In this document: positions 1 through 30,420 of the stretch, piece by piece
Position numbering within the stretch: the stretch's first letter is position 1
Layout: each line of letters begins with the position of its first letter
Source: Marsupella aquatica
Taxonomy: Eukaryota > Plantae > Marchantiophyta
Direction: 5' to 3'
Assembly (NCBI GenBank): GCA_973895155.1
Contig: OZ316895.1
Span: forward strand, 742,435 to 806,434
Length of the DNA: 64,000 nt
The notes under the pieces: generated by a model
The model's database searches: none
What the model saw: the letters and a program-made list of their open reading frames with translations, nothing else
What the model was told of the DNA's origin: nothing
Made by a program: the position numbers and the translations under genes

Positions 1-302
1 CTAGATAAGTACCCGATTCAGATCGAAAATTACAAGTCTCTTCTGAACCGGTGACTTCTTTGCCGATGGATTAGGCACCATCTGTACCTGTGATTTTTGT
101 GCCGCAGGGTTTGGAGAACGTACTAGAACGGTCTATTTGTTTCCTGCCTCCGGATGATCACCGGACTTCCGGACTGGTGCCTTCGATACTCGATTAGGGG
201 GTTTCGGGATAGGCTTCTGTAAAACATTAAGAAATGAAAATAAGTTTATAACGCGAATGGTCGCGTGACTACAAAGAGAGACACTAAAATGAAGTGTATT
301 AC

Positions 303-1090
303 CTGTACAAGACGGTCGTTCAGTGCTGGAATTCCGCCGGAAATGTCAATCATAGCAGCACGGATCCCGGTAACTAGGTTACTTGCGGACGTCAGCTTGC
401 GGAAGTCCATGTCAAATAACGACAAGACTATCTCCCTACGGAATTTCTCAATTTGATCCGCGGCAAAATTAATTCTGTTTCCTTGACACAAGCACTTGGC
501 GTATCTCAAGATAAACACACCACAACTGTGGCCGTCACTCTGGTGAGGAATATCATTCCGATATATCCGTTCCCAACCTGAGAGATCCAAGTTGACACCA
601 GTTCTCTAGCCAATTTCGTCGGCGTAGTACTTCCCAACAATATCTAGCACCCCAGGATTTTGTCGATTATGAACTAGAGAATCTAGGTACTCCAGCCATT
701 TCTCCTTCGGATACAAGACTACCAATGACCAATGTTCTTTCACAGCATTGTGTACTGGAAAGACCAGTTTGTCGTATTCACTGATTTTTAGCGGAAACTC
801 CTTTGTCCAAGCTGCTCTCTCCTCGTCGAAAATGGTAGGATCCATGGAGAGAAGCTCAAAATGGTGTGTTGGAAGAATTTGACAAGGTCTGAATTTCCAA
901 CTCTATCGAGAATCAGTTCGAGAAAACTCAAATAAGCGTTAATTATATCATCGGTGAGCAACTCGCGCGGTCTCAAACACATCATATGTTTCCTCTTGAT
1001 CGAGTGTTGTAAGAACTTGGTCAATAGCTCTTCCATATCCTTAGAAGGATCAAGGCATTGATCTATTCGACTAGCCAAATTTTCAAAAAA
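303..1090 (-). pseudogene. Ulp1/peptidase C48 SUMO-protease domain exon
   Basis: Contains LTDDIINAYL, FPVHNAVKEHWSLVV (catalytic His), YLDSL (Asp) and PHQSDGHSCGVF (oxyanion Gln, catalytic Cys). Split by one frameshift and one TAG. Confidence 0.9.
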
Positions 1091-1139
1091 CTGCAAAAAA
1101 CAGAGATTTCAGTACGCCTTCAAATAACGTACTGAGGTT

Positions 1140-4100
1140 TGTGATGCCTAGACAGGAATCACTCGGCCGGTTAAGTGGGTAAAGCAGGAAGGCACCCTAG
1201 GAACACCTTAGTATAGTGACAAAACAAGGAAAATATAAACAATTAGGGGCAACCATGGAACCCGGGCAGAGGCCGGAGGTAAGGCTAAGGGTGAAAACCC
1301 GATTAGGGTTAGGGCGCGTTAAGCGTCGGCGGCTAGGAAGGATCAACGGGAAGAAGGACCGGCAGAGGAGAGGGGTAAGGAGCGCTTGCAGGAGATGGTG
1401 GCTCATTTGCGAGCACGAACTAGGCAGACGACTACGGGAGGCCAACTACTGTCAGCTGCTTAGGCAAGCACTCGGGGAGAGAGTAGATACCGACGATCGA
1501 CCTAAGGAGGGTATGAGCAACGTCAATCAAGCGGCACATTTCTGGGGATGCCTGTTCGAACGGGCAACTGAGTACATCAAGACTTACGAGGACGAGGAGT
1601 CAGAAAGGGCAGCTCGAGAACGGCAGGAGCTCGCTCGATTGTGGGAGCTGCAGAAGACGGCTTTCTTAGGAGGCGAACTCATCAAGGACGAGTTCCTGTG
1701 GATGCCTACTTCCAATCAACTCGACGATCTTCTGTTTTGCAAAGACAGCGTCGTCGGCATCCGAGAGGCCATCAAGAACTGCAACGACATACACTGGGAA
1801 TTAAAGGGTAGCACGGAAAGGTGGACCCAGGCAACGGTGCTAGGAGAAACCTCCACGGCAGCAGAGATGAAGAGGAAGGGAGCCATCAACGATGAAGCCA
1901 CCCCGGCAAAAAGAACGAGGTCGGCGGCACCAAAGAAGCCAGCCGAGCAGCAGAGCAGGAGGCAGGGAGAAGCCGAAGAGGAGGAGGTCGATCCCATCAA
2001 GGCCATTCCAACCAGGGATGACACCTGGAAGGGCTGGGCGGCAACCCTACCGGTGGAGGTGCAACTACATTTTGCACGGGAGGAGGATGCATGCTTTACG
2101 GCCATGCAGACCAAGAAGTACCAAGGCTTCATGGCCGGATCCGGCTTGGAGGCCTTTGTAAGATTACCATGGCTGAAGCCGGAGGTACCGGAGTCAGACC
2201 TATTAGAATTCGTGGGGTCATGGGAACCCGAGACCAATTGCACGAGGATATATGGGAGGGATTTCTATCTTACTCCCAAGGTAATTGCCGAAGTGTTTGG
2301 CTTGCCGATAGGCAATAAGACCAAAGTTGATACCAGGAAGACCTTGCCTGACAAGGAGTTCCGGTCGTTCCCCGGGCCATCAACGAAGAATGGCTTCTTC
2401 CGGAACACCTGCACCAACCCGCACATAGGAGAGATGATCGACTTCTTGCGGGTGACCATGCATTGTAACTTGCCGAGGGCAGAGATCGGCAAGGCACAGG
2501 TCTATCTGGCAGAAAGGCCAGACCCAAGCTGGGACTACAACGGGTACCTCCTCAACCAATTGAAGAAGATCTTAAAGGAGGAGCAGCAGGTAATCGGCAT
2601 GGGGAGCGTGTCGCGGCTTGGCTATCACATGCCGCTGTTGTGCCGGTATGCCAGAGGTCAGACTTTTGCCCCGGTACTTCCCCTGCAGGTAAGGGCACCC
2701 GAGGAAGCTCCAACGCCGAGGCCGTTGGCTGAGAAGCCTCCACCACCTGTTAGTCCTACGATCGAGCAGGTGTTTAGGCCCAGGAAGGAAGACTTGTCGA
2801 TGCAGCAACCAGACATGCAGAGTCTGCTGAAACTACTGGAGAAAGAAAAGAAATTGGCATCGGCAACAACAACGGCAACGGCAACAATGCAGGACACTAC
2901 TACAGAGGTAGGCCTACACCGGCTCACAAGAGAAAACCCCTTTGCTGGAAACAAGGAGAGAATCAGGCCGGAATCCAAGCCAGGTGTTCGAATGTACATG
3001 GGAACCTCAAGCTCCGAATCTGAGGCAGAATTGCCTGAAGCTCCTACCGACGAAGAGGAGAGGGAGAAGCCGGACGTCCAAGAAGTAGAGGAGGCAGTGG
3101 AGGACTGCAGCCATGATAATTCCGGCTATGGGTCGGACCATCACGTTCCAGGAGTAAGGACCTATGGCCGGTTTGTCCCCACACTTCCAAGGGTAGTGCG
3201 AGGGGACCCCAACCAGCAGAGTAGCCCTGAGTCTCCCCCACCAGATGTTGCTCCCCCGAGCTTCGACGACATAAAACAGACGGTGCAGGAATTTCAGGAG
3301 CGAATCAAGCAGGAGGAAGAGGTCGCCCTGGCTAAGGAAAAGGATTTACCAGGAGGAGATTGGCCGGAGGACATCAGGCGGCTAGCCGAAAAAGGAAGCA
3401 AACCTCTAGCCACGATTGAAGAGATCCGCAGGACGGCTTGGGAGCAGAGGCCACGATGGGCGATGCCGATCACTTCTACTTACTCCACCTACGCTAAGAA
3501 TAGAGCCATGGAGTATGGTGAGATGTGTGGGGAACTTGAGCTCGGCATCTTTGGAGAGGAGTTGGAGATAGGACCCTTTTTCCATAGGGAGCAGTTGGAG
3601 AAGCACCAATTAGAAGAAGCGGTGGCTTTAGAGAGAAGCAAGAAGGACGAGGTCATTCGGCGGCTTAGGAGGATGGAAGCCGAGATTGAAGATCTAAGGG
3701 CGGCCAAGAAAGCCCAAGATGAACTGCGGATTAAACGACATGAGCTGAACATCATGCAGGGGCAGTTGGACACCGCGCAGGCTGATAATCAGAATATCAA
3801 GGATAAACTGACTCAGACGCAGGAAGAGTTGGCCGACACGATCAAAGAGAGGGAGAAGTGGAAGCAAGAGCTGAAGAATACAGAGGAGGCCCACATAACA
3901 GCCAACAGCCGGGCCATGGCGGAGACCCAAAGAAAGGAATGGGCGTTGAAAGGGGAGCTCGAGAAAATCCGCGGAGCCCTTGAGCAGAAGGAGGTCGAGT
4001 TAGGGAAATCCTATCAAGGGATTATGGCGCTGCAGCAGGAGCTTGCGTCCCTGACGGCCAGCTTCAAGGCCGACCTAAGGGAGAAGGACGAGATGCTCGA

Positions 4101-5790
4101 ACAGACTTACGCCAAGATGAACCAGATGGAGTCTGTCATCATTGTAGAGCTCGACAAGGAGCTAAGAGCAACCCAGGAGGAGAGGGCTACCTTGAAGAAG
4201 GAATTGGAGGAAGCCCACAGGGAGCAGGAGGAGGCCAAAAACGAGCTGGAGGGGGCACATAAGGACCTGGATGAAACCCAAGAGGAGTTGGAGGAAATCA
4301 CGAGGAAGATGGAGAACCTACAGCGGCGGGCCGACAACCAAACAGAGCGGCTGAAGAAACAAGCCGCAGTATTTAAATGCTTAGCTGCAGCAGGTCCATC
4401 TCCCGTTGGGACAAACCAGTTACCAGGGGTGGTAATTGCCGAAGGACAAGCCGCGCCAACTGCACCAGTGCCGGAAGTAAGTGGGAAGGGGAAGGGACCA
4501 GCTGCCGAGCCACCAACGAAGAAGAAGCGGAAACCTTCAGGGTCAAGGAGTAATACGACTTCACAGGCCGTGGTGATCAAGGAGGTAGACCCAGCACCGA
4601 CCCCAGACAGGGTCACGGCTAAGGATCCAACTACCCTAGGGGAAGGGGAGGCCGAAGCCGAGGGAGTGGCTGAAGCCGAAGCCGTGGGAGTGGCTGAGGC
4701 CGAAGCCATGGGTATTGCCGAGGCCGGTGTCGAGGCTGAAGCCGAAGGTGGACCCAGTCAGGCCGATGGAGAGTTGACTCAGTCAAGGGCAGGTAATCTG
4801 TCAGTAGGCGGGCCAACGGCAGTGGCTGAGGAGGAAGTGTTGGGGGCGTCCATTGAGGATCCACCACCGGTGTCGTGACGGTGCAAGGGCGCCGTTCCTT
4901 TTAGGGAGGGCGGACGTGGAGGGAGGAGGCGTGAGTGGGCAGGGCGGGCGCGGATCTCCACGTTTAGGATTAGGATCAGAACCAGGAGCGGCCCTGACAC
5001 TTAGCTTAGTGGGATTGCGGTCCCACTGGTAGGAGCAACACTTGTGCTCCTGCCTTGCTGTACATAGGTAGATTCGGGCAAGTAGATGACTGTCAGGTAG
5101 ATTAGGCTTACGATGCAAAGAATGGCGGATCCACTACCAGGATAAGTACCTGGGCAGCGGGGAGCTCAGGGCCTCTTCTTTAGCAAGTTTTTAGTTTGCA
5201 CCAGCCGGGCTGGGATCAAGTAGTACGAGAAGCTCTCGGTTAGTCATACAGTGACCCTTGTGTATATTCATGTTTCCTCATGCCTAAGAGCTGAATAGAG
5301 TTGGCCTCACGGCTTAGTTCGCAGAACTTGTGTATGAGATGTACTGTTTGTATGGCAAGTGCATGGTATGACTCAGTCAGAATGAGTCATTTTGCTATTT
5401 GTGTGTCGCATTAACTTGTGTGAAGAGTGCCCACATCAACAGAAGGAAGGAAAGTAAGCAAGGGAGTGAGAGTTGGATGTGTCGAGCTGAGAGAGGTCTT
5501 AGCGGCTTAACCAAGCCTATTGGGGATCATTCCGGCGGCGGAATCCAAACATACCTAACAAGAAGACAGGGGAAGACAGGGGAAGGCCTATATTAGGCCG
5601 GCTACGTATCTCATGACCCGATGAAGGATCTGTCCAGTATATGTGTGTAAAATGTTAATAGTAGTAGCAGAAGGTTAGCAGCGTCCCATGCCGCTAAGCC
5701 GCGGAAACGGCCTCGCCAAGCACGAAACCTGCGGGAATCGGCTTGAGCTGGGGGGTTTCTTGGGTTTAGGGAGCCATGGGACGCACCACA
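1140..5790 (+). mobile_element. Solo-LTR-like element family A, copy 1 (4651 bp), inside an intron of the multidomain gene
   Basis: Starts TGTGATGC and ends GCACCACA (short imperfect inverted ends). 5-bp TSD AGGTT at 1135-1139 and 5791-5795. No gag/pol and no internal direct repeats. A second copy lies at 14285-18943. Confidence 0.9.
1513..4878 (+). CDS. LTR-borne protein (~1121 aa from ATG 1513; frame open from 1216) with a plant-retrotransposon accessory-ORF-like domain and a long coiled coil
   Basis: Intact ORF. The segment GLEAFVRLPW..LLEFVGSW..IYGRDFYLTPKVIAEVFGLP (~2128-2312) resembles plant mobile domain/Transposase_32/Athila-ORF1-like motifs. Heptad-rich region at ~3590-4370. TATAAA at 1234-1239. 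Confidence 0.75.
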   Translation: MSNVNQAAHFWGCLFERATEYIKTYEDEESERAARERQELARLWELQKTAFLGGELIKDEFLWMPTSNQLDDLLFCKDSVVGIREAIKNCNDIHWELKGSTERWTQATVLGETSTAAEMKRKGAINDEATPAKRTRSAAPKKPAEQQSRRQGEAEEEEVDPIKAIPTRDDTWKGWAATLPVEVQLHFAREEDACFTAMQTKKYQGFMAGSGLEAFVRLPWLKPEVPESDLLEFVGSWEPETNCTRIYGRDFYLTPKVIAEVFGLPIGNKTKVDTRKTLPDKEFRSFPGPSTKNGFFRNTCTNPHIGEMIDFLRVTMHCNLPRAEIGKAQVYLAERPDPSWDYNGYLLNQLKKILKEEQQVIGMGSVSRLGYHMPLLCRYARGQTFAPVLPLQVRAPEEAPTPRPLAEKPPPPVSPTIEQVFRPRKEDLSMQQPDMQSLLKLLEKEKKLASATTTATATMQDTTTEVGLHRLTRENPFAGNKERIRPESKPGVRMYMGTSSSESEAELPEAPTDEEEREKPDVQEVEEAVEDCSHDNSGYGSDHHVPGVRTYGRFVPTLPRVVRGDPNQQSSPESPPPDVAPPSFDDIKQTVQEFQERIKQEEEVALAKEKDLPGGDWPEDIRRLAEKGSKPLATIEEIRRTAWEQRPRWAMPITSTYSTYAKNRAMEYGEMCGELELGIFGEELEIGPFFHREQLEKHQLEEAVALERSKKDEVIRRLRRMEAEIEDLRAAKKAQDELRIKRHELNIMQGQLDTAQADNQNIKDKLTQTQEELADTIKEREKWKQELKNTEEAHITANSRAMAETQRKEWALKGELEKIRGALEQKEVELGKSYQGIMALQQELASLTASFKADLREKDEMLEQTYAKMNQMESVIIVELDKELRATQEERATLKKELEEAHREQEEAKNELEGAHKDLDETQEELEEITRKMENLQRRADNQTERLKKQAAVFKCLAAAGPSPVGTNQLPGVVIAEGQAAPTAPVPEVSGKGKGPAAEPPTKKKRKPSGSRSNTTSQAVVIKEVDPAPTPDRVTAKDPTTLGEGEAEAEGVAEAEAVGVAEAEAMGIAEAGVEAEAEGGPSQADGELTQSRAGNLSVGGPTAVAEEEVLGASIEDPPPVS

Positions 5791-6779
5791 AGGTTGTAGC
5801 CTAAGGGTTGTAGCCTCAGAAAATAGAAACAATAACAGATCAATAATAAAATAATGACGTCTATAATAGAAACTTTAAGCTTATAGCTTGCGAATGACCT
5901 TTGGATTGGGTGGATCCGGCCTTTTCACAGCTGATCTCTTGGGTGCCTCAATCGCAACAACATCCTTCAGCCCTCCTCGAGACCGCAGTGATCGCTCCAC
6001 CGGACCAGTTTGCGAAGGTTGGAGCGATGAGGCGGGAAGACCTTCAAATGGTTGTGGCATTTGATTCAAATATTCCACAATCTAGGAATCCGATTCCAAA
6101 ATATCCGGTGCCACAATTTCTACGCGAGTCACCTCTGCAATATATCGGGGTCGAGACCACGAACCCGGTCGCGTCAAGTCAGCTGTTAGTCTCTTAACGA
6201 CTTGAGCCAAGTCTGGTGCCAAAAACATTCCCAGGTCTTGCACTCGATTCTTGGAAAAGCGGACATTATTGATGATTGTCTCCATTCTGGATGCAGTGGC
6301 AGTCTTCTCCTCGGTAATCAAAAGACCCTTCCAATATTGCAAAGCAAGGACTGCCTGGACTCGGAGCTGCTCCGGTGAATATTTATTCCAATCATCCAAC
6401 GAGACCGTACTTAAGGGTGGATCGTTAAATTCAAACTCCGGGCGAAGAAAATAGTCTAATATTTTCTTCTTAACTGCAACTGAGGGTGAAGAAGGCTTTT
6501 TCAAATTCAGCCTTATTTTCGGTAGATGTTGTGCCTCAGGAATAAGCGAAAGATCCTTGGCCCTCTCGGCCTCCTTCCTCACTGCCTCCAGTCTTGCGGC
6601 TTCTTCTCTCTCCAGTCTTGCGGAATCGACCTTTTCCGCCTCCAACTTCTCCGCCTCCATCCTCTCCGGTCTTGCGGTCTCGTCCACCATCCTCTCGGCC
6701 AGCAGCCTCTCAGCCGCCACACTCTCCGCCTTGGCCCTATTTTCCTCTGTCACTAAAAGGACTCTCACAGCCTCCGTGT

Positions 6780-7395
6780 TCTCGGCCTCCGCTTTCTCCG
6801 CCTGGGCTTTCTCAGCCTGGGCTTTCTCAGCCTGGGCTTTCTCAGCCTCCGCTTTCTCCGCCTGGGCTTTCTCAGCCTCCGCTTTCTCCGCCTGGGCTTT
6901 CTTAGCCTGGGCATTCTCAGCCTGGGCTTTCTCAGCCTCCGCTTTCTCCGCCTGGGCTTTCTCGGCATCCGCTTTCTCCACTTGGGCTTTCTCAGCCTCC
7001 GCTTTCTCCGCCTGGGCTTTCTTAGCCTGGGCTTTCTCAGCCTGGGCTTTCTCAGCCTGGGCTTTCTCGGCATCCGCTTTCTCCGCCTGGGCTTTCTCGG
7101 CATCCGCTTTCTCCGCCTCGGCTTTCTCCTTCTTCTTCGCGGCAGTTGCTTTTCTAGCTGCTGCCTTTTTCTTCTTAACCTCCTTCTTTTGAAGCTCCTC
7201 TTGCCGGGCCGCCTCTTGTCGGGATGCCTCCTCCTGCCGGGCCGCCTCCTTCTTTTGAAGCTCCTCTTGCCGGGCCGCCTCCTGCCGGGCCGCCTCCTTC
7301 TTTTGAAGCTCCTCTTGCCGGGCCGCCTCCTGCCGGGCCTCCTCCTGCCGGGCCGCCTCCTCTCTGGCCTCCTCCTGCCGGGCCGCCTCCTCTCG
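6780..7395 (-). repeat. Coding minisatellites: 15-bp AEKAQ/AEKAE units (~6780-7130) and 18-bp EEAARQ-type units (~7190-7395)
   Basis: Tandem GCCTGGGCTTTCTCA and CCTCCTGCCGGGCCG units within ORF 6082-7572. Confidence 0.95.
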
Positions 7396-10300
7396 GTCCA
7401 CCTCATGTCGAGGCTCCTGTGTGGCCTCTTCATCAGAGTCCTCAGCATCCTCGGAACCCTCCATCTCCTCATCCTCTTCATCAGCGTCCTCAGCGTCCTT
7501 CATCTCCTCTCCGTCACTCTCTTCATCTCCTCTATTGTCAGAATCTCCGACATCGTTCTGCGTATCGGTCATCCACTTTGGATCTTGGTCATTGACATCC
7601 CCATCCGCGTCACCTTCCGCGTCACCTTCCCCTCACCATCCGCATCACCATTGCTCCCTGCATCCTCAACATTGAAGCTGCAGTCGACTTGATCTGAATA
7701 AAATCAAATCATTTGATAAGAATGACTCACGCGCATATTCGCGTGAAAAGAAATGTTATGAATGTCCACGCGCATGTTCGCGTGACGCAATAAAAAGTAA
7801 GAGGTTTCAAAAGTAACTTACCTTGGATTGGCCCACTAGGGTACTCCGTTGGTCGAATATACAATCAATCGGAATCTTCAGAGAGTGCATACTCTTGCAA
7901 TAATTGATTACAAATATTATCAGGGATATGTTGTTCGTGGAGGACATCCAAAACATCAGCCCTGAGAGCAGTTACGGATGGACGGTACTTCATTAATTTA
8001 TCTATACATTTTTCTATACTAGCCCGTACTGGGTCAATCAATGACAGCGTTGTATCAATTGTCACCGTGGTGTGTTGCAAGAAACAAGACAACTCCCTAT
8101 GCGTTGCCACAGGGCAGTAATATTTTACATTGGATCCAACATCCTGTAAAAAAAACCGAAATTAGTTCACAATATTAATTGAGAATATAATAATCTAAAT
8201 AATCTTAAAATCGAAACCCCAAAATATAAATCTCAAAACTTACCATTAAGCACTGGATCAAGTTCGTTCCCTCACCGAAGCATATAGCCCATTCCCCACA
8301 TTGGACGAATTGACTAACAATACTTTCAAAGAATGGAAGTATCTTTTCTGGGGAAGGTGTCGTGAACTCGCCGCTCTCTTCAAAATTGGCTATCTTCTCA
8401 ATCTGATATTTGGAGACCAATTGGAACTCGAGGGCTTGTGGATCGCCCATTGTGCTGAAGGCCAAGCTGTGAAAAGCGTAGGTTACAATAAGCTTCTTCT
8501 CCTTCGGCCGCTTCTGAATATAATGGCTATCGACAGCAACGTAGTGTGTGTACTTCCCTAATTCCCGTTTGATTAAGTAAGACTCAACGGGAGAGGCTAC
8601 AATAATAACCACATGGTGTGGTTTTGCCCCTATCTCGCTAGTAGCACGAAATAACCCCTCATAGAATGAGCAATTTGGCGGACGCAAATCTCCCATTGAT
8701 GAGGGATCAAAATAAATCAAGCTCGCAAGGTTCTTGTCTTCACGTATGATACAGTCTGCAAACCCAACATTTTGTATATCCTGTAGGGATTGCAATTTCA
8801 GCCTCTCACCGATCGGCCGCACTAGTTGGTTTCCTTGACTATCAACTGATTTCTGTATTCCTTCCACCAACCTGTAGAATATAGGGTCGATCTCCTTCAA
8901 CAAATTATCATTACTAATATTTACATTTAAGCACTTCTTCAGATAACCACTCAACGCATCTCTCAACTGCTTCAGCACCATCTTGTCGAGCTTAAAGCGA
9001 TCAATCATTCCTTTGACCCGCAATTTCCGCGCTGAATCTGTCAGACTTTTCAGCTTCGTCCGGGTGGATGTTTCCCCGTTGAGTTTACTCAATAATAAAA
9101 TCTCAAACTCAACTTTCGTCTTCTTCTTTATACAGAATTGCTCCAAACTCATGCTGGTCGTTGACAACACTGGAGCCTCAGAGGACTTCCTTGCCTTCCC
9201 AGATTTCACTTTGATGTTTCGGTTTTTGAGTATAGACAGTCTTCCGCTCAACATATATTCCGCTGCCTTTCGAAGAACCGAGTCTGAGCACCCTTGACAA
9301 GAACGGAATGTCTTCTTTAGAAGATGATAAGCACACGGATTATCCGCAATTTTGACGGCGTCCCTCTGTAAAATTCCGTTGTAAATTACAAGCTCTCCTG
9401 TCCTTGATAGTTCGTAGACCTCCATCCACTTCTTGAATGTTTTGTCCTCCATTGTAAAGAGAAACAGAGCCAATTCTCCAAATTTCATCATTTCGTTCTT
9501 CCCCATTTGAGCCCATGGGCAAACAAAACTCGGAGCTCTCATAAATACCTGAAAAACAATGGAAACATGACAATTCTAAGCTTGACGCGACCGTTCGTGT
9601 GACAAAAGTTTATACGATAATGTGATCGAAGAGGGTTATTTATATACCTTCCAATTTGAATGACGATAATGTGATCTAGGCCGCCCAAATGAGTTCCAGA
9701 TATTACGACACTGTCGTACAATGGTGAGAAACTGTCCTTCTTCCATTGATGTTTGATGACAGTGGTTCAGAGCTTTCGATAATCCCATCAAATGAACATT
9801 ATTGTCGTTGTTGAGCGTTACCCAAAACATTACAGCTTCTACAGTACCGCAAGCGTCTCGTACAACTTGGCTGACTTTGTCGTCCTCTCTTAGCAATTTG
9901 TATGCCATTATTGTGTGCTGGCCTCCGAGTATCCAGAAATGACTGGTCATAATGTCCTCCTCCTTTGGCGATGAATCGTAGGGTGTCCCATTGTAGTCGG
10001 GATCTCTGTCGGCCTCCAACTGAACCCACTTCACAGGGACTAAAAAGTAGCATCGCTTCTCAAACTTTATAGCCGAATGAGAGAGGAGTGAATTCTTTAG
10101 CCTATCTGTGTAATCCTGATTCCACTCTCGGCACTTGATGTGGTCCTGTGCAAGATGACAACGTGATGTCTCAACAAAAAATGACTTGTTGTTAAATATA
10201 TTCACAGCACTATATTCTTTGAGGAAAGAATCGAACATAGCCCCGACATTCGCTGAGGTAATTACTTTCGGAAGATTCTCCGCCAAGTATACTTCAACCT

Positions 10301-10961
10301 TGCTCACTGGCGGGGCCTTTCCCAAGCGAAATCCCTGGTTGAAAGGAACTCTCTGGAACTCAAGTACGTCAATAATGTATTGACAAATCAAATCTCCCGT
10401 TGATGCCTCTGGATCGGAAGGATATCCCACACTAGTAACCTTTTCCAAGGCGTGCCTTGCACCTAGAAGATCATTGATTCTGGGCTGATTGAAGGTTACA
10501 TATTGCGTTCGATCTAAACAAATGCTTATTTTGTCTTCCTGCTGGTCGTCGCTGACTAGCAGAACCAATCCCTCTGTACACTCTTTAACTTTCATGTTCT
10601 TCTCAAAGAAACACCCGAGAATTTTTGATCTCTCCAAAACTGTAGCTTTATCATTTCTTGCCACCACAAGACGGACAGCCCCATTGCGAACGACTATTCC
10701 AAAATTGGATATCTCAGTCGATTCAAAGAGATGGATACTCTTTGTCTCCGTTGTTCTCTCTCTGATTGACTTTCCTCGATATGCAAGTATGGATGTCTCC
10801 GCGGGAGTCATTTTTGTCTTGGTTTTCTTTCGAGAAGCAGCTTTAGACGAGTCTCTTTTCCGCTTTGAGGTTCCGGCAGGATCCATTCTGAAACAGACAA
10901 ATATTGAAAGTTAAATGTTTATTATAAAATACTAACACGCGCATGGTCGCGTCATGCCGAA

Positions 10962-11492: not shown

Positions 11493-11526
11493 AATATGGA
11501 AAAGATTAAGAACAAGAACCTATCCA

Positions 11527-18943: not shown

Positions 18944-20849
18944 AGGAGCTCATTATGTCGAGTTAAAAAGACTCTTTCAGAAGTACAATCAAAGCTGTGG
19001 ATAGGCAAACTGAGCATGAATAAAAGCGCACTAAACCTGAAGATTCAAAGAGGTGAAACAAACCTGAATGTTGAATGGAAGGAGCTAAAACAAGCTGCCA
19101 AAAAGTAGTTCGAGCTGCTGAAACACGTTGATCGAGCTGATATGAGCTTAAAATTGGTTGACACGAGCTGATACAAGCACTCCCAAAAAGCTAGCTGCAA
19201 CGAACTAGCAAACTAGAAGTGAATACAAGTTGTAAATGCGAGCTGCAATGCGCCAACAAGCTCCTGGTCAAAACGATGGACAACTACTAAGAGCTGCAAC
19301 GCGCCGACAAGCACCTGACCACAACGAACGAGCTGCAACGACAAAAATGAAATCCAGGGCAGGAGCGAGAGCGAGAGTAAGAGCAACGAGAGCGAGAGCA
19401 AGAGCGACGAGAGCAGGCGCGCGAAAGTCTAGGGAGCGAGAAACAACAACAATGAACAATGAACTCGAGACCGTGGGCACCGACACTAAGGAAGGACTAA
19501 TTAGGGTATTTTTTTAGCATAACCCTAATAACAGCCTAGCGACATGAAGGTTCCAGATGATCTCCCGTACACTCCACCATCGACTGAACAAACTATGCAA
19601 TCGTGAAAAAAATATTACCGGATTCCTTTTGATTTGCCGTACTAAAGGAGATTTCTATTTGATCACCAATTTGAAATTTAAACCGGTAATTATGCAACTG
19701 CGAAAGATTATTAGTGGGGACCCCCGGATCCGGATCCGGATCCGTATCTTCACTATATCTGCCAATTCAAATCCAAAATATGAACGAACGACAACTTTCT
19801 CACGATCGTTCCATCACGTAGTGGAGGCAAACTTCAAAATCATTCCATTTTGGTAGTGGAGACCGTCGGATCCGGATCCGTACTCCACTCTCTATCTTGC
19901 TAATTCAAACCCTTACTCTAAACAACATAAAATGATTCTCACGGTCGGGGAGAACCGATATTCAAAATCAATCCTGTACAATGATTCTCACGACTGGAGA
20001 CTCAACCAATTTTCAAAATCAAAATCGAGTCCAAATGAACACATCCTCCATGGAGTCAATAGACTGATCTCATTGCTCACGGATCATTCTTCATTTTCAG
20101 TTTCTCCTGACCAGGATACTAGCTGGGCTCTCAGCGGAGGCTGATTCAAGGCACATTTGAGGTGGAGCAGATTGGATCATTCGACTATTCCAGTCGGAGG
20201 CGGAGCTCATTCAAGCAACGCTGGCGCAGTTCTTGTTGTATCACCTTCAATCTTGGGGAGAGCACATCCGATCAAGCGGGAGAGTTGCAACAAAGCGAGA
20301 TGACAAAGATTTAGAACCTCCATAGTCTGCCTCATTCATCGAAGCATTCTAACAGACCAACAAAGAGCGGCTATTCTGAAATCACTGTCTGGTCGAGGAT
20401 TTTGATCTTGATATGATCAACAAGTTGTCATTCTCTGGTGGTGGGATTCGGTCACGATACTCAAGGAAATTGGAGTTCAAAGGAGGAGGCTTAGTTGGCT
20501 GGGACGAGGAGGAGGCTACGTTGGAAGGAAGAGGCTTGGCTGGGAGGAGGGTTTCCGCCAACATCGGAGGGTTGCCGCCAATATTGCTGAGACCACACGC
20601 AACTGAATAACTTGTAAGTATCAATCAGCATTAATTCCACAATAAATGAGGAGAGTAGTTGCCTTAAATCACGCATTCAATGCATGAATTGAGTCAATGA
20701 AGTTATGGTCCAATTTCTCACTCCGATTTTGATCAATCCGTGTTTCAAGTCCAATACAGAAGCAATGTATCAGAAGTACTAGTAGAGGATCCGAATGAAT
20801 TCTCTAGTCTAAAATTGTATGGCGGACGCGTATAGTTGTCCGTACGTTT

Positions 20850-21800
20850 TGCTATTGTTTATTGTAGTCGACGGCCTAGCAAAACGAAACGTAATCGAGG
20901 TCCATTTTTCAGATCTTCCTGATCTCAACTTGTTAGTAGGATGACCTGTTTTTTGGTTACACATGTAGTTCATCACGCGCACAGTCGCGTGAACCAATTT
21001 ATCTCGTGTCTTTTGATATTGTTTATTGTAGTCGACAGCCTAGCGAATTGGCCAGCAATCTATTTTAAAACCAACGTCTTCATTTCATCACGTGCACGGT
21101 CGCGTTAATGTTTTAGAGGTCAGCAAAAGCTCTGCACTCTCAGACGTAATCGCCCTTTATTTCTCATATCTTCCTGATCTCAACTTGTTAGTAGGATGAC
21201 CTGTTTTTTGGTTACACATGTAGTTTATCACGCGCACAGTCGCGTGAACCAATTTATCTCGTGTCTTTTGATATTGTTTATTGTAGTTGAAAGCCTAGCG
21301 AATTGGCCAGAAATCTATTTTGAAACCGAGTTCTGATTCACGCGACCGGTCGTGTTAATGTTTTAGAGGTCAGCGAAAGCTCTGCACTCTTAGACGTAAT
21401 CGCCCTTTATTTCTCAGATCTTTCTGATCTCAACTTGTTAGTAGGATGACCTATTTTTTGGGGTACACATGTAGTTCATCACGCGCACAGTCGCGTGAAC
21501 CAATTTATCTTGATATTGTTTATTGTAGTCGACTGCCTAGCAAATTGGCCAGAAATATATTTTAAAACCGAGGTCTTCATTTCATCACGCGCCCGGTCGC
21601 GTTAATGTTTTAGAGGTCAGCGAAAGCTCTGCACTCTTAGACGTAATCGCCCTTTATTTCTCAGATCTGCCTGATCTCAACTTGTTAGTAGGATGACCTG
21701 TTTTTGGTTACACATGTAGTTCATCAAGCGCACAGTCGCGTGAACCAATTTATCTCAGGTCTTTTTGATATTGTTTATTGTAGTCGGCAGCCTAGCGAAT
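20850..21800. repeat. Tandem array, ~250-bp unit x ~3.7, with two ACGCG-N6-CGCGT palindromes per unit
   Basis: Repeated GATCTCAACTTGTTAGTAGGATGACC blocks. Palindromes at 20975, 21090, 21230, 21340, 21481, 21587 and 21726. Confidence 0.93.
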
Positions 21801-22005
21801 TGTCAGTCAGAGGAATCTTCTTTTTTCCCTTGATTGCAAAAATGGTTACATCGATCCCGAAGGACTTCGGATGTGGAATCCATATCCACTAGCACTATCC
21901 AGGAATTTAAGCTACACAGTATCTATAACAAGTTCTAACTTGAACTACTCTTGAATCTGTAGTTCTAATCTTCGACTACTCAAAATATTGTTGACTTCGA
22001 TCGAG

Positions 22006-22548
22006 TCAGTCATTCCAAGATGAAGGCATCCACTCATCGGTGTCTGGTGTGGATTCCCTTGAATCCAGAAATTCTTCCTTTGCCCAAGTCCTAACGTCCA
22101 TAGATTTTCTCGGCTTGCTCTTTCTGTAATACAAATCAGAATCTTCGTTCATCTCTAATTGCCTTTTCTTTGGTGCGTCCACTTTCTTGGCCTCCTTCTT
22201 GACTGTCTTAGCGTCTGCTGCTGCTTCCCCCGAAATGGATTTGACGCATGCTCTGGCCTTCAACTTCTCCCCCCTCAAAATGGATTCCACGAGGGCTTTG
22301 CCCTTTAACTTCTCCCCTGATGCCATCTTTGTAGTCATCTCTGTCGGATTGGTCTCCATATGATCTTCCATCGACAAATGTGGCGAACAATGTCGTCTCT
22401 CACAAAACATTTGACCCGATTTAGTCACCGTAAACATTATATTACATCGCTGACACATTCTTTAAGGAGTGCCACGAATTTGATACGTCGAACCTTCTAA
22501 ATCGTCCGTCGGAACATCCTCATTCTTCGAGCTCAGCGGAGTAGTCAT
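22006..22548 (-). pseudogene. Small Cys-rich (possible Zn-binding) cargo ORF with one in-frame stop
   Basis: MTTPLSSKNEDVPTDDLEGSTYQIRGTP*RMCQRCNIMFTVTKSGQMFCERRHC followed by a basic/acidic tail. No family recognised. Confidence 0.4.
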
Positions 22549-22864
22549 CGCCCTTCAAACAAGAGATGCTGACCGAGACTAAGAATTGGAAATGAGAGAG
22601 TTGATGTGCGAATAGATTATCCAATAGCCAGAAAGTGGAATGCGTGGGGGAATGAGCAATAGGGATCATCTCAATGCTTTATACTGTTTAGTCTCCACTA
22701 GTCATTGTACATAGTGGTTTCTAGAAGAGGGTGCGTGTTTGACTGGCGCGTATTAGAATTGGCGGGAAGTTCAGTTGTCCTCTAATTATGGCTTTAATTT
22801 CACGTTTGGCGACCGCCCCGAGAATACTGATTGCTAGTGAAGTACTGAGATTTCTTATGAAGGT

Positions 22865-23600
22865 CAGTAGTTACTGACTGTCCGGTGTCCACTCATTTTT
22901 CCTGAGTGGAGTTGAAATGATTGTTTGTAATCGATTGTAGTCGTTCTCATTCACTTGAAATGACTGACGAACCATGCATTATCTTTACCGGTATGTGTGA
23001 TGCCTTTAGATCCGTAATTGTATCTTCCTGTCTCGCGCGCAATTGTATCTTACTTATGAAGTACCAATTACGAGCTATAGTTTGGGCCTAGCCTTCTAGC
23101 TTCTACGTCGTAGACCCTGTACCCTCTGACTAAGGTCACGCAACATGCCTTTAGATCCGTAATTGTATCTTCCTGTCTCACGCGCAATCATATCTTACTT
23201 ATGAAGTACCAAGTATGAGCTAGAGTTTGGGCCTAGCCTTCTAGCTTCTACGTCGTAGACCCTGTTATCCCTACACCCTCTGACTAAGGTCACGCGACTA
23301 GTCGCGTGCAGGGCAGTGCATTGACTACATTCTGCCTACTTATTGACGGTTGTGACAGGACAATGCAGTTCACGAACGTTTTACTGGCGCTTATTAGCAC
23401 TACTATCCTCAATAGTTACTGACTGTCCACTCATTTGTTCTGAGTGGATGTGAAATGATTGATCGTAATCGATTGTGGTCATTCTCATTCATTTGATATG
23501 ACTGACGGACCATGCATAGTCTGTTGCCGGTATGTGTGGTACCTCTAGGGTCACGCGACCAGTCGCGTGTAGCGCAGTGCATTGACTACATTCTGCTTAT
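22865..23600. repeat. Nested duplications upstream of the transposase (~146-bp tandem pair at ~23000-23290; ~135-bp block at ~22868 and ~23413)
   Basis: ATGCCTTTAGATCCGTAATTGTATCTTCC occurs twice and TAGTTACTGACTGTCC...CCGGTATGTGTG occurs twice. Palindromes at 23292 and 23553. Confidence 0.85.
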
Positions 23601-25863
23601 TGACCGACGTGACAGGACAGTGCAGTGAAATTGACGGACGTGACAAGACTGTACGCTTACAGTGATATTCTCTGATGTGCAGGATCATAATTATTATGGT
23701 GACATCGACAGTCTGGATCAGGGAAGGCGGACAAGTTATTATAGGCATACGTGAGAAACAGGTTGGAAAAGGTCGCGTGATAAGTCTTGATCCTTCCAGG
23801 GTTTGTCACAATGTTCCTCTTGGGGCGGACAGAGTTCTTCTTCTATTGGAGGAAGTTTTTGACGAGACCATTCTATGCGAAGATGGCAAACTTTTGAAGG
23901 ACATGATTGGGGGTTACCTTGTATGGGAAAGGAATCAGCTTTTTCGAGCTCCCATGGAATCGGAGGATGTGTTTGGCACTGTTGGTGATGATCAAGATCC
24001 AGTCAATCAAAATTCTGATGGGAACAACCATAATGAGAGTCGGTCTGGTGTGGAAGTAGTTTTACCAAAGGCCTTGTGGATGGGCATGCCTGTAAAGGTG
24101 GTGGATGAGAACAAGTTGATTTTTGCAGTGGCAACTATACATGTTCTAGATCCTATAGTGAAGCTTGGGGATGTCACCCTTGGGAATACACATGTGGGAA
24201 TTCTGATCAACGATTTTGTCGAGGGAGCTACCATAGATCATCTGAAGCATAGAGATTGCTTAAAAGCTTGGTCGATGGACCAACTCATTGCCAAGGATGG
24301 CAACTTGTTGTCTTTCCACAACATCAGGCAAGCTATGGGAGGGAACACATCTCCAACAAGTGGCAAGCGGTCCTACGTCCATAAAAGTAGGAAAAGAAAG
24401 AGTCCATCTTCCCAGACATCTAGAAGAGACACATCTTTGGCACGTCAAGATGTGTTGTTGATAAACACTAAGGACTGTTGTAGTGAACATTGTTGCCAAT
24501 ATTTGGACCGCAACTTGGCTATGGCAATTAGGCAAAAGTGGTGGTCAAAATCTTTTGCGGAGCGCAAGGAGGAGGTAATCAAGGCTATTAAAAATACAAT
24601 ACACTTGGGTACTAGAGAAAGGATTCTAGCAGTGGAGGGCAAAGTATTGTGCTTGGAGGCATGGAGAATCATTCATTCAAGAGGAAAGACTCAATTTTAT
24701 GCCTTGAAGAAGACTGTGATGGCTGGAATGAACATAGGTACCCATGGTAATGTTGGAAAAAGGCGTATGTCCGAGAAAGTATCTCTAGCATTCATGTCAA
24801 TGAAAGAGATTATTGAGGAGGCAGCTGATCATCATCCAGCCAAGTTGAGAACCATGGCAGATAATACAAGGATGGTTTTGAGGGAATTGCCAACAAATCT
24901 TACTTGGGAGAATATTAGAAACAGGGTTAATGTTGTCAACCAGGAGGCTTGTCTTCCTCCAATTTCCCAACCCACCTTGAGTCATCTACATCAGATTTAT
25001 TTTAGGGAGTTCTCACGTCACAAAAAGGGCAACAACTTTTCAAAGTGTACAACTTGTAGTGAGTTGCTTCAACAGAAAGCAAACCTTACAGGAGCTAAGG
25101 AAGAGTTAGAGGGCCTAAGGCGTGACGAGGAGGAACATCACCAAGACCACACACAGCAAAGAATGTGCTATCATGCCTGGAGATATGAGTCCATCCATCG
25201 TCCAAAGGAAGTGTTATGCCTTATTCATGATAAGATGGATCATTCAAAGACAGCTCTCCCAAGAATGCCCTTCAATCCTAAGCATGTGGATGGTGCCCAA
25301 AAGTTCCCAATTACTGTTGTCACGTCATCGGCTGCGGCCTTAACTCAGACTTCAGCTTAGACGGGCACATCCCTCGTAAATCTGAGGGTTCGGGCAGGAA
25401 GGGAAGCACATAATGCACCTTATTCTCGTAAACTAGCGCTAAGTGCGCATACTGCTAAATACGGACACCTCCTAGGTATGGTTTGTGTTCCGCCGCCGGA
25501 ATGTACCTTAGTCGATAGCAGGATCGACCCCGGCTTAAGGGCTTCTAAGCCTTCGTGCTGTCCGCCTTTGATCCAGATTCGATGATACAGGTCCTCAACC
25601 CGTGCTCGCAACCACTTACCCGCAGGCTGCACCCTGTGCACGTCTCGGGTAGTGCGTTCGGCCTGGCGCTGCCACCCATATACGAGAAACCCACACACAT
25701 ACACGCGCACATGCATACAATCTCGATTTACATGAAGGAAAATGATGGGAAAGGATTTTACTACAAAGGGAACATATGCGTACACTTAGTTGACCCGACA
25801 GCCCCGGAATGAACAGGTTCAAGGCCGAGGGTGCACACTACAACGGAGCGCGGCTTCGCACTC

Positions 25864-26206
25864 ATCACCCTATTCATTAAAAGTGTATTTTATTTTGTTC
25901 ACTTTTAGGCCTCGAAATGTACACTTGTTGGTCTCTAAATGTACACTTTTTAACCCCAAAAGGTATACTATAGTACAATACTCTACACCTAAACAGTCAA
26001 TTGTAAACTTGAGGGAGAAAAAATAATCTTTACTAGAAGGAGTCTCATCCTAGTTCATTTATAAAAGATGAACATGGTGGTATGTCTGATGGCCATCACC
26101 TTTATTTCTTGCTCAAATGTACACTTTTAGAAAGCCAAATGTACACTTTCTATTGCCCAAATGTTCATAAATTGAATAATAATTCACTTTTAATGAATAG
26201 ATTGAT
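25864..26206. mobile_element. MITE nested in the family B solo LTR
   Basis: TIRs ATCACCCTATTCATTAAAAGTG / CACTTTTAATGAATAGATTGAT. ACTC is duplicated at 25860-25863 and 26207-26210. AT-rich interior with AAATGTACAC repeats. Confidence 0.8.
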
Positions 26207-26675
26207 ACTCGCCCGACGAGCTTAGTCCTACCCCCTCCCCTTGGTACTCTTTCATTCCCAGAGGTCGGGACTCCCCGCACATACCGCGGACACCCAACTC
26301 TGCAACTAAAAACCCCCTGCCTCTACCGAGGGGTGCACTAAATACTAAGGGCTGAGGGACGGGGTGTCCTCTCGCCGAAGATTCACTGACTAAGGTCCTA
26401 ACTAAGCTGACAGTCAGGCCGGAAACGGCTGTGTCTTATTAGAAGATCCTAATCTACGCAGGCTGGATAGCATGGCAGCGATGTTGTACCTAAGACAGGT
26501 GCCTGTCCCAAGAGCCTGACTAAGCTAGTCCTAATCCTAATCTATTCCTACTCCGCCGCTAATGCCTGGCACGCTTGCCAGAGCCGTCTAAATGGGAGCG
26601 GCCATCCCGCTGCCTTCGAAGCTTGTCATTGTCCGCCTTGAGGAGCTGGACCTGGTCCAGTAGAGATTCGTTCTC

Positions 26676-27602
26676 TCACCTCGCCGCGTCCGTCTCCTTT
26701 GTTGCCTCCTGACAAGCCTCCTCCAACTGTTGGGCGTCACTTGTCAGTTTACCCGCCAGCTGGTCCTGCTTCTCGGCCTCGGTTTGGAGCCGCGCCACCT
26801 CGGCCTGCAACATGGCTATCTCCGCCGTGTCCCGTTGGGCCCGTTCCTCGGCCTCCTCCAGGTCTTTCTGCCAGGTGACAGTTTGATTCTTCAAACTGTC
26901 AATCTGGTTCCGGAGTTGTGTAATCTCGGCCTCGTTCCCAGCTTTGGCCTGTTCGGCTAGGGCGGTAAGAGCGTGCGCCTTTGCTAACAACTCATCGGCG
27001 GCTGCAACCTTGGGTCGTAGTTTCCAAAGCTCAGCCTCTTGAGCCGCAACTTCGTTCTTTAGGTACACGGACTCCACCCGGTACCGCTCTATCCTCTGAA
27101 GGGCCTCTGACTGGGCCCGACCTGCCTTTACTACGGCAACCAACTCCTGATTGAAGAAACAGGCTACCTTCCGGGCCATGAACTCCCCGGTATCCCGGGC
27201 AATTTGATGAGAGAAATCTCCCAGAAGCCCGTTCAGAAATGTACCCAGTACGAAGAGTTCCGGGTGGTCCAGGTTGTGCCTGTCCGGAGTTGGGCACGGG
27301 CAGACGTCAACACGCGCGGGGGCCGGGGCAGTGACGTCCAACCCTGGGGACGTAACGTTGGAAGGGGCTGGAGCGTCCTCCTGTAGCAATGTCTGGTTCT
27401 CCGGAATAGCCACCGGTGGGTCTTTGGGAGAACCGGGCTCGGGTAAGACCTCCGCCGTACCGACTTCTGTACTTAGCCCGGCCTGTTGGGTCGCATCAAC
27501 GGTTGCAACACCCGACCCATCCGGTACCTCCTCGGTTACGACTACAGCTACTTGTGGAGGTGGGGTGGGTGAAGCTGGCGTGTGGACTGATGGACTGGTG
27601 CA
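26676..27602 (-). pseudogene. Pro/Ala-rich then coiled-coil ORF remnant inside the family B element
   Basis: Frame is open from ~27602 to 26676 with no upstream ATG. Heptad-like C-terminal half (EAEITQLRNQIDSLKNQ...). Confidence 0.6.
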
Positions 27603-29841
27603 CTACAAAGGGTTGGCTCCCCTTTTATACCTTGAGGGCCTGTCGATCCCCCGACGTCTCCTCGATGCCCATAGGCTGAACCGCTCACGCTTGTGGTGTG
27701 CCGGCCACTCCGCCGGTCTGAGTCAGCGCGTGTCAGTGGCCGCTTCCTTAAGTTTGTTATACGGACCCGAGGGAGGGGCCCCTCCACGCTCGTAACCCGG
27801 GTGTGCGAATAGCGACCAGCCGCCAGTCCGAACCTGAATTCCCCCTTATTGCCTAATGATATCCTACCCATAATGATTACCTAAATACTATCGTTATGCT
27901 AATAATAGCGGTCTAAGACACTCCTAACGCGCGTGCCGAGCGCAGTTAGACCGAATCACTTATTAACCGCCGTACCGGCGGCGTCACAACTGTCACTAGT
28001 ATCCTTACTCATGGTCATGGTCCCAAGGCCATAGCCCAATATCATGTTGGAGTGTGGCCAGGTGATGTCAACATCACTATTGGGTCAATTGATTCAATAC
28101 TAAGGATGTTGGAAAACCCAAATCCAATGATCAAATCACTTGTGGAGGGGCCAGACTCGACAAGTCTTTTTAAAGACCTCCTTTTTGGGAGAGCAGATAT
28201 CTTGGAGGCAAGTGTCCTTAGAGCATTTGAGGATGACATTGCCTACATCTCAAGCCTAGGTACTTTACTCACAATCCTTTAATTATTATTATTTAATAAT
28301 ATAAGCTCACACACACTGACACTCTACTTTGTGTAGTTGTTGCTCCTCCTAGCCAAGGTTTCATTAATAGGGTTTAAACCCTAAACCCTAAATTGGGGTT
28401 TAGGGTCTGACTAGGGTTTTATTTAAAAGCATTCTGAGATTGTTACATTGTGATGCAGCACCTGAGGCACCAAAGTTCAGGCCCCTTCCACGAGTATTGA
28501 AGCTACAACTGGATAATTGTGCCTCAGACAACAAGAACAGATATATGATGGCTTATTTGTCATTGTTGACGGCAAGGGAGGTGTTTGAAGAGGTTCATCT
28601 TGGTTTTATGGTGGTTGGGCATACTCATGAGGACGTTGACGGTATGTTCAGGCATTTTTCAGAGTCTATGATGCATAACCCCACATACTCATTGCCTGAG
28701 TTAATGTCCTTGTTCATGAGAGCAAGGACACCCAATGCAGTCCCACATTTTCTACAGGAGGTCCCAGATTTCAAAAACTACTTAGCTCCATTCATGTTGA
28801 AGGGCCCTGAGGCATTGGTGGGGCATTTAAAACCCAGGCTGTTTAGGTTCTATGTTCGTCATGATAGTATGCCATGCTTCCAATACAAAATGAAGTCAAC
28901 TGATCAGGGATGGTTACCCAAGGAAGGTATTGAAATGTGGTCATGGAAAGATGACAAAAGTCCTCACATCCCAATTGGGGTGCCCAAACGGCTACCAATG
29001 ATGGAGTTGAAAATGCTTCCTGACGTGCTGACAGGGTTGAAGAAGCATGTGTCATTCTTTGAGTTTATTCTAAAGCGAACAAAAGAGGAAGAACCAAAGC
29101 GACGTTGGACAACTCTCATCAATTATTGGAATGACATTGTAGATACTCTATAGGGTGAGCAGGTGCAATATGAACCTGAAGGTGCACACAACTTGGAATA
29201 CGGGTTTTAGCCTTTATCAATATGGAGAGAGCACGTTCCACCAGAATATTGAAATGTGGCATGTGAGTTGGAGGCAACAGTGGATTATGTGGGACCAGCA
29301 AAAGATAAACCTCCTGAGAGTTTTAACCCTAGGGTTGATGTTGTGAAGGGCTGTTATGTGTTGGTACGGCCGGACGACTCAGACCTGGATGTTTATCCTG
29401 TCCATATGGGGTTAGTTGTTACAGATGTGGTAGAAGGACCAGTGAATGAACAAAACCTTCTTACTCATGTATGTGGCGTTGAGTGGTTTAGACCATTTAT
29501 GGCAAAGAAGCAACGTGGTCAATCAGACTGGCAGCCAAGAGAGCGGTGGGCAGATTCTTGGGATAAGAAATGGGAACGTGATCCAGCTCCAATATACAAG
29601 GAAGCTGAGACAATAGATGTTTCCTCTGCCTTGTGGTGTTTCAAAGCACGCAAAGGACCAGTGACTGGGCTGGTAGGAATTCCAAAGAATGTTGTTGTCA
29701 AGGCAAGAGACTATCTCTTGACATGCATAGCAAGTGACAAATCCTAGACAGTAATGAAGCATGTAGTTTAGCATACAGTTTAAAAGGCAACTCAGAATAG
29801 TAGTAGCCAGAGAACTCAAGTTTAGACAAGTCTTATCGTCT

Positions 29842-30420
29842 AAGTTAGTTAGTTGGTTAGTTTATTTAAGATATAATATTAGTTAGTGGGGCCTTAGTTT
29901 GGTTATATTAAGGCATGATATTATTGACATTCAAATGAATGTCCAGTAGACATTGTAATATACAACAATCCTATTAATAAATAATAATTATAGTTACACC
30001 CTCAAGTGAACTCAACTTTCAATGATTTCTGATTTTATATGGTTCCATGCCTGATTGAGTCAAAGCAATAGAAACTAACTAATTAAAGGGTGATACTATA
30101 ATTGTAGGTCACGCACCCTGGTGCGTGTCAATCTTTTTTGTATTCAACCCTATAGTAATTAAATAGACAAGTTAGTTAGTTGGTTAGTTTATTTAAGATA
30201 TAATATTAGTTAGTGGGCCCTTAGTTTGGTGATATTAAGGCATGATATTATTGACATTCAAATGAATGTCCAGTAGACATTGTAATATACAACAATCCTA
30301 TTAATTGTTGTAAAGAAACTAATTAATTAAAGGGTGGTACTTACTATGATTGTAGGTCACGCACCCTGGTGCGTGTCAATCTTTTTTGTCTTCAACCCTA
30401 TAATAATTAAATAGACAATT
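29842..30420. repeat. Tandem duplication downstream of the transposase carrying the palindrome variant ACGCA-N6-TGCGT
   Basis: AAGTTAGTTAGTTGGTTAGTTTATTTAAG... at ~29842 and ~30169. CACGCACCCTGGTGCGTG at 30110 and 30358. Confidence 0.85.

Follow-up and report, generated by a model that had tools for sequence, protein, structure and literature searches.

A dispersed CpG-rich palindrome in a giant liverwort DNA transposon as a candidate docking site for the element's own ParB-fold accessory protein

The DNA analyzed here is a 64,000-nucleotide stretch (hereafter the window) of contig OZ316895.1 from the liverwort Marsupella aquatica, the left 30.6 kb of which is one multi-copy unit, a giant DNA transposon carrying a plus-strand transposase gene, a minus-strand accessory gene with a ParB/Srx fold and 28 copies of a short palindrome (Table 1). 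We propose the palindromes as candidate docking sites of the ParB-fold accessory protein, whose binding would counter methylation and silencing of the element, and we give this reading as a whole about even chances.

Table 1. Features of the transposon and positions of its palindromic sites in the window.
Feature	Position	Strand	Remarks
Giant DNA transposon	1..30635		left end outside the window; about 18.7 kb once the three insertions are subtracted
Ulp1/C48 SUMO-type protease region	303..1090	-	two segments exceed the Pfam PF02902 cut-off (E 1.5e-4, 1.5e-6); stops in present copy
Insertion 1	1140..5790	+	TG..CA, 5-bp duplication, 1225-residue open frame; no palindrome at 0-1 mismatch
Low-complexity coiled/repeat exon	6082..7693	-	contains coding-region palindrome 6159
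Helical and possible degenerate beta-class N4/N6 DNA methylase exon	8244..9548	-	continues past intron 8144-8243
PH-like and ParB/Srx exon	9648..10887	-	PH-like residues 37-190; ParB/Srx about 232-402, GGQHT replacing GxRR
Three F-box-like repeats	10966..12605	-	below Pfam cut-off
Insertion 2	14285..18943	-	inverted near-copy of insertion 1; missing from other copies
Small Cys-rich open frame	22009..22461	-	Cys/His spacing zinc finger-like; between second array and transposase
Transposase gene	23699..29747	+	DUF7869 (Pfam PF25273, E 2e-37); CpG-depleted
Insertion 3	25318..27988	-	TG..CA, 5-bp duplication; missing from other copies
Palindrome	249..268		predicted intron 217-302 of minus-strand gene; splice in frame for about 27 codons
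Two palindromes	7727..7785		predicted intron 7694-7821
Palindrome	9583..9602		intron 9549-9647; liverwort gene models P0028 and P0045 cross the junction
Palindrome	10935..10954		predicted intron 10888-10965; frame kept by splice
Palindrome 12136	possible intron 12095-12187		least certain; splice breaks frame in present copy
Site 12751 and tandem array of nine sites	12749..13601		269-bp unit of 80-bp subunits; upstream of minus-strand gene
Second, unrelated tandem array of seven sites	20973..21743		unit about 250 bp
Last two intact sites	23290..23570		duplicated block just upstream of transposase
Two subterminal copies	30109..30376		one CpG lost per arm; stretch CpG o/e 0.06

The right end of the transposon, as we place it, reads GGGGTT at 30635 and is followed by ATTT and then by a copia-type element into which the transposon appears to be inserted. 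The end was set at this position because the copia sequence beyond it continues differently in other contigs (loose ends at 30654). Contig depth, which was used for evenness alone and not as copy number, is even over 7.4-14 kb, 19-25 kb and 28-30.6 kb (runs X1-X3), and insertion 3 and the flanking copia sequence have roughly ten times the depth of the element. The transposase contains the aspartate words HDKMD, LDNC and HTHEDVD, and we take it to be akin to the Sola1-type DDD transposases. The target preference of Sola1 elements is given as AWWT (PMC3845634), and Sola1-1_Ec32 of Ectocarpus is described with AACCG-CGGTT termini and a 4-bp duplication (PMC12477816); comparing one end only, GGGGTT and CGGTT agree at four of five letters. 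The transposon is therefore likely to be Sola1-like, as judged from this one end.

All 28 copies listed in an earlier, sequence-only reading of this DNA carry the ACGCG-N6-CGCGT-type motif at their coordinates. The window holds 13 exact copies, 23 with at most one mismatch and 33 with at most two; the count of 23 compares with 0.26 expected and was reached in none of 100 shuffles, and all 23 fall within 251-23568. Five additional matches appear at two mismatches (4948 in long terminal repeat (LTR) insertion 1, 19407, 31478, 31721 and 38678), and the statement that the LTR insertions and the DNA beyond 30.4 kb are free of copies accordingly holds at zero or one mismatch and fails at two (all of these matches but 19407). 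In its fuller form the motif extends over 20 bp as the degenerate palindrome WSACGCG-MMYRKK-CGCGTSW, whose center is a pyrimidine-purine step. This 20-bp form gives 27 matches at up to three mismatches against 0.21 expected, all of them in 249-30376 and with site 12136 just outside, and it recovers none of the five additional matches. While the arms are conserved as first described, a free N6 spacer was rejected, since 88 of 90 spacer letters (15 independent contexts) obey MMYRKK, a consensus built from the same sites, which makes the associated p-value optimistic. Most arm mismatches (18 of 20) are CpG transitions, as had been noted, and at 12891 and 21353 the consensus letter is present in contigs from other copies of the element.

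The flanks of the sites are unrelated, again in agreement with the earlier description: over 12 contexts (66 pairs) the median score is 14 against 14 for shuffled sequence, and the best score of 22 equals the 99th percentile of the null. Because the flanks share no more similarity than shuffles do, the motif is not a small mobile repeat with conserved flanks, and that candidate was rejected. It is likewise very improbable that the motif has no binding function and is a by-product of tandem duplication or of a tiny mobile repeat. Such an origin would suit the 16 of 28 copies that lie in the two arrays and the four more in duplicated blocks, but at least 12 contexts have unrelated flanks, and the four CpGs of each site have been kept while other parts of the window have an observed-to-expected CpG ratio (CpG o/e) of 0.55-0.66.

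Although 57% of the element is coding, 27 of the 28 sites are non-coding, and only one of the 15 independent contexts is coding (p 7e-5). Of these, six occupy five predicted introns, while the region upstream of the accessory gene has ten, the space between the genes nine and the vicinity of the right end two; the sole coding-region copy, at 6159, has two mismatches and sits inside an open reading frame. The sequence-only reading had counted three short introns, so that its intronic placement stands and its number does not; its account of copies in intergenic gaps and in two unrelated tandem arrays, and of confinement to the element and its non-coding parts, is upheld within the window. The transposase gene has no full site. 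A lone half-site (GTCGCGTGA) occupies 23772-23780, in the first codons of this gene. In runs X1 and X2, about one tenth of the contig depth is without 10 bases of site 7729 (7730-7739); site 7768 shares its intron.

The two similar beta-rich modules that open the transposase frame (23699-24300) presumably recall the C-terminal domain of plant Tnp1/EnSpm proteins, with no such match in Pfam. The transposase, or these N-terminal modules, might itself bind the sites for synapsis or self-activation, a possibility we regard as quite improbable. Transposases can be sequence-specific activators (10.64898/2026.08.24.746577), two copies are found at 260-520 bp from the right end, and the half-site at 23772 falls within the gene; however, the best palindromes are internal (26 of 28, with the left end outside the window and the comparison thus half made), decay is most advanced in the subterminal ones, and the sites of TnpA and of the transposase are reported as terminal in the same source.

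Another candidate reader is suggested by the spacer. Read on the plus strand, the spacer has T at position 11 in 13 of 14 independent contexts, but the mirror position, 6, is divided evenly between A (seven) and C (seven), and this orientation is the same across 23 kb. A strict homodimer does not require this polarity, and it could instead reflect a host factor, for example a CGCG-box factor such as those of the CAMTA family or an intron-enhancer factor, or the protein of the small Cys-rich frame (22009-22461), to which no Pfam or PHROG family was matched; the arms do contain CGCG. We nevertheless consider a reader of this kind distinctly unlikely. There is no site at zero or one mismatch in the 33.6 kb of flanking DNA or the 12 kb of insertions, the polarity is based on about four to six independent sites, and to our knowledge a fixed 11-bp arm spacing is not a feature of CGCG-box factors.

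The minus-strand accessory gene offers a more natural partner for the sites. Splicing of three predicted GT-AG introns (10888-10965, 9549-9647 and 8144-8243) gives 1040 residues without a stop, and the domains follow in the order F-box-like repeats, PH-like fold (match with Z about 5 in VIA-align), ParB/Srx fold, helical region, methylase-like region, low-complexity repeat exon and Ulp1 protease; the gene in the present copy contains stops and frameshifts. The Ulp1 region is likely the far end of the accessory gene beyond insertion 1, and its link to the ParB exons is putative. Past this region the frame (1-60, minus strand) reads KRLVIFDLNRVLI, which we take to recall the first motif of HAD/FCP1-type phosphatases, and the accessory gene may continue past the window with another chromatin-related domain.

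For the ParB exon, the AlphaFold model has a predicted local distance difference test (pLDDT) value of 84.8, and the ten top-ranking Foldseek matches consist entirely of ParB, PadC and Noc structures (probability 0.96-1.00, E 0.011-0.05). VIA-align gives KorB at Z 8.0 (root-mean-square deviation 4.4, 114 aligned), PadC at 7.8 and SerK at 7.3; sulfiredoxin is also among the best structural matches. A profile alignment to seven bacterial ParB/Noc-type sequences beats 40 of 40 shuffles. The ParB-like protein of the sequence-only reading is therefore borne out at the level of the fold, by three agreeing methods and no single strong score. The exon has 32 matches among 1.84 billion representatives, of which P0021 (which looks spurious) and P0025 were excluded from the ParB alignments. 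Organism-named relatives comprise three proteins among the 20 clusters looked up, all from the liverwort Calypogeia fissa, including P0045 at 32% identity. Searches of PDB sequences, NCBIfam and PHROGs and a phage tblastn search gave nothing significant, the ParB-like phrog_1033 appearing below significance at E 0.1 and 0.56 for two of 14 proteins. Pfam scans of the element frames found no family over the cut-off besides DUF7869 and C48, and the homologue searches found no longer fused homologues, which is weak evidence.

The exon at 8244-9548 matches P0001 at 52%, and its methylase-like region has an Atlas lead to PF01555 at 0.77; the Ectocarpus gene described below serves as a precedent for this assignment. 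Where it aligns with the methylase set (32 YhdJ-type sequences; a redundancy filter kept 31 of 156), the catalytic words appear degenerate in the window and P0001 respectively, with DPSS/DCSV for DPPY and FGEG/FSEG for FxGxG, although this alignment is uncertain. A structure model of the 8208-9542 exon built from two sequences has a pLDDT of 31.

GGQHT aligns with AGERR of ParB. In each of the 17 homologue rows that extend over it (about 11 clusters), and likewise in P0045 and the window, T or S stands in place of the Box II GxxR arginine, whereas the arginine of Box I is present, as is an asparagine position resembling that of Box III. An R-to-A change at the Box II position abolishes nucleotide binding in the proteins described (10.1101/2025.10.10.680097; PMC10770331). 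A canonical ParB/parS clamp, with loading that depends on cytidine triphosphate (CTP) and spreading from the sites, is thus exceedingly unlikely even with a ParB fold and with parS described as a 16-bp site (PMC8494293). The parS-like clamp contemplated in the sequence-only reading did not survive this comparison and was rejected as the principal interpretation; the loss of the arginine suggests static binding instead.

A ParB-fold protein that binds without sliding might also repress. Under this alternative, the palindromes would be KorB-like operators damping two divergent promoters and the change in CpG content described below would be a matter of gene history. It draws on the fact that the top VIA-align match, KorB, is a plasmid transcriptional repressor, on the position of the arrays upstream of both genes, and on the degenerate state of the predicted enzyme motifs, as in a pure binder. 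Operators need no deep intronic copies such as those at 251 and 7729, which are as much as 12 kb away from the promoter, and the long-range action of KorB uses CTP, for which the Box II arginine is missing in the element protein, so we view repression as unlikely.

A possible functional trace of the binding that we favor is found in the CpG content, which was measured with the palindromes masked and the insertions removed. The accessory exons, the Ulp1 region and most spacers have a CpG o/e of 0.84-0.97, compared with 0.28-0.35 for the transposase exons; the value for the right end is 0.06, and both palindromes there have lost CpGs. The fraction of C followed by G falls about three-fold, from 0.161 to 0.055, at a change point placed in 23786-24798, or 0.2-1.2 kb past the last intact site (log likelihood ratio 31.4 against at most 9.8 in 200 shuffles). 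The step is also seen at codon junctions (58 of 258 CpG before, 14 of 147 after; p 0.001) and in NCG codons (46 of 260 before, 7 of 185 after; p 5e-6). This pattern fits long-term shielding from methylation, and other explanations exist.

Taken together, it seems probable that some element-encoded protein binds the palindromes, and the ParB-fold protein is, by a little better than an even chance, the binder. The arms one turn apart, the symmetric degenerate center and the placement wherever coding permits would point to a dimeric site under selection. Three points make the ParB-fold protein the best candidate in our view: its family reads such palindromes, the intact sites track its gene and the promoters and not the terminus, and algal elements show this pairing again. 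The ParB/Srx fold would bind as a fixed dimer and without a CTP-driven sliding clamp; the ACGCG arms, 11 bp or one helical turn apart, would match a two-fold symmetric binder, and the helical region following the fold may read the palindrome sequence. The methylase-like (catalytically dead), F-box-like and Ulp1 parts could then act as tethered effectors or scaffolds, and binding would protect the accessory gene, together with the two predicted promoter regions, against host methylation and silencing, with the CpG step as a putative record of long-term protection. Anti-silencing is favored over self-repression because of the VANC-like layout and the CpG step, and overall we hold this outcome to be somewhat short of an even chance. 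A more far-reaching version is tentative and on balance doubtful: the element would represent a second, independent land-plant anti-silencing system, in which a ParB-methylase fusion of bacterial or phage origin lost both chemistries and turned into a tether that recognizes a specific sequence and brings F-box-like and SUMO-protease arms to the CpG-rich palindromes in the element's introns and promoters, keeping about 14 kb unmethylated for long enough to have left the three-fold CpG step.

Several observations weigh against this interpretation. On the side of the protein, Foldseek gave nothing at E 0.001 or better, and the VIA-align Z values of 7-8 are near the stated noise ceiling. A helix-turn-helix after the ParB fold scored 13.5, a value matched in 6 of 40 shuffles, the helices being colinear in the whole-domain alignment. 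The methylase alignment by hhalign is colinear and non-significant (6 of 100 shuffles were as good, and the hidden Markov model scored the reversed sequence higher). With respect to the sites, one short intron of the accessory gene (8144-8243) has no palindrome. The transposase gene begins where the CpG content drops, and gene history or gene-body methylation accounts for the step equally. The first array, in which sites are densest, is CpG-poor once they are masked (o/e 0.41, 13 CpG), as is the next stretch (0.52), and insertion 3 (0.87) and the flanking copia sequence (0.82) are CpG-rich without sites. Finally, C-to-T changes in the present copy occur in all contexts (12 CG, 10 CHG and 11 CHH, in 33 variants hand-picked from roughly 80 shown among more than 1,300); since they occur at sites and elsewhere, the present copy is not itself protected, and the pattern is as in a silenced copy.

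The closest relatives of the proposed arrangement are found in algae. Sola1-1_Ec32 is likewise described as a giant Sola1-type element with an AACC/GGTT-type end and with an accessory gene on the strand opposite to the transposase that encodes a ParB-like and then a methylase-like domain, and its 4-bp duplication may be compared with the ATTT that follows the right end here; its authors propose self-binding and self-modification (PMC12477816). The present element differs in its land-plant-type host, in a longer product that adds PH-like, F-box-like and repeat parts and probably a Ulp1 part, and in methylase words that are degenerate if the alignment holds, the two elements being compared by description and not by sequence. 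It also differs in its dispersed sites, the string "palindrom" having 0 occurrences in the main text of PMC12477816. In the red-algal Plavaka element, the accessory gene PAG3 has a ParB-like N-terminal domain next to adjacent tandem arrays of inverted repeats, with self-binding again proposed (10.1101/2025.02.11.637652); according to that preprint it differs from our case in its EnSpm/Plavaka transposase, its 2-oxoglutarate (2OG) oxygenase effector and its repeats, which form adjacent arrays and are not intronic.

The VANC proteins of Arabidopsis VANDAL transposons are similar in that a family-enriched short motif occurs in introns and upstream regions and is amplified in tandem repeats (PMC5735166). 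The motifs of VANC, however, are 8-9 bp long, non-palindromic and co-oriented, its protein and transposase are unrelated to those described here, and binding and demethylation are reported as proven for VANC while they are proposed here from sequence (PMC5735166; PMC10398659). The VANC-like system suggested by the sequence-only reading thus stands in part: within the window a non-coding motif is amplified in two unrelated arrays and occurs in introns, but membership of VANDAL was rejected, as the transposase matches DUF7869 and is not Mutator-like. The sequence-only reading also attributes a Ulp1-like protein to VANDAL transposons; the word Ulp1 has 0 occurrences in the text searched from these VANC papers (PMC5735166; PMC10398659).

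Bacterial ParB/parS, KorB and VirB share with the element the ParB/Srx fold and a palindromic site of similar length. The palindrome is unrelated in sequence to parS, and the bacterial ParB/parS systems further differ in that the Box II arginine is lost here and no ParA was found among the 31 frames scanned, the left part of the element lying outside the window. VirB is a ParB-type protein described as an anti-silencer (PMC10770331), and ParB-methylase loci are reported from phages and bacteria (PMC4738411; 10.1101/2025.10.10.680097). TnpA of Arabidopsis Spm is an element-encoded protein with clustered CpG-containing motifs and CG hypomethylation, but its sites and hypomethylation are described as terminal (10.64898/2026.08.24.746577), whereas the intact sites here are internal. 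The sections consulted of PMC4738411 and of the report on Marchantia DN4MT1 (10.1101/2021.02.12.428880) gave no direct link to the element protein.

Self-binding ParB-type accessory genes are already in print as a hypothesis, for the Ectocarpus Sola1-1 and the red-algal Plavaka elements. According to the Bostrychia preprint (10.1101/2025.02.11.637652), VANC alone among transposon proteins has been proven to bind its own element and modify it, and the algal ParB-fold accessory genes are a proposed second class, without a defined site or functional trace in the text of these reports (PMC12477816; 10.1101/2025.02.11.637652). In the literature we found no land-plant case, intron-wide sites, Ulp1/F-box extension or CpG step for such genes, and supplements, including the Bostrychia repeat-layout figure, may bear on this novelty. 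With a precise 20-bp candidate site, the liverwort protein relative P0045 and an internal contrast in CpG decay, the present element makes the algal proposal testable. If it is true, a fold from bacterial partition systems serves plants as a module for targeting chromatin, one whose recognition site is long and specific.

Sister elements with DNA were sought in a metagenome scan, which gave two loci from 39 candidates (L001, where the shadow frame of a bacterial response regulator matched by chance, and L002, with a weak 1.2-kb match without arms), and in two viral-contig scans, which were empty.

The three insertions, which had been described as solo LTRs, do have TG..CA ends and 5-bp duplications. 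Insertions 1 and 2 are 84-98% identical, inverted and 4.65 kb long, each with a long open frame in which no Pfam family exceeds the cut-off, and they are unusually long and gene-bearing relative to solo LTRs. Contigs of other copies show a loose end at 14283 that runs on into the sequence beyond insertion 2, and a joint from 25312 to 27989 bridges the site of insertion 3 (runs X2 and X3); other copies of the element are thus without at least insertions 2 and 3. The transposase frame stays open across insertion 3. Outside the element, a minus-strand gene at 37198-39127 appears host-like, and its C-terminal part, which has no Pfam match, presumably recalls plant EDR4/extra-large G-protein-like proteins. 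Plant telomere-like AAACCCT repeats are present at 28377-28402, in a predicted intron of the transposase gene.

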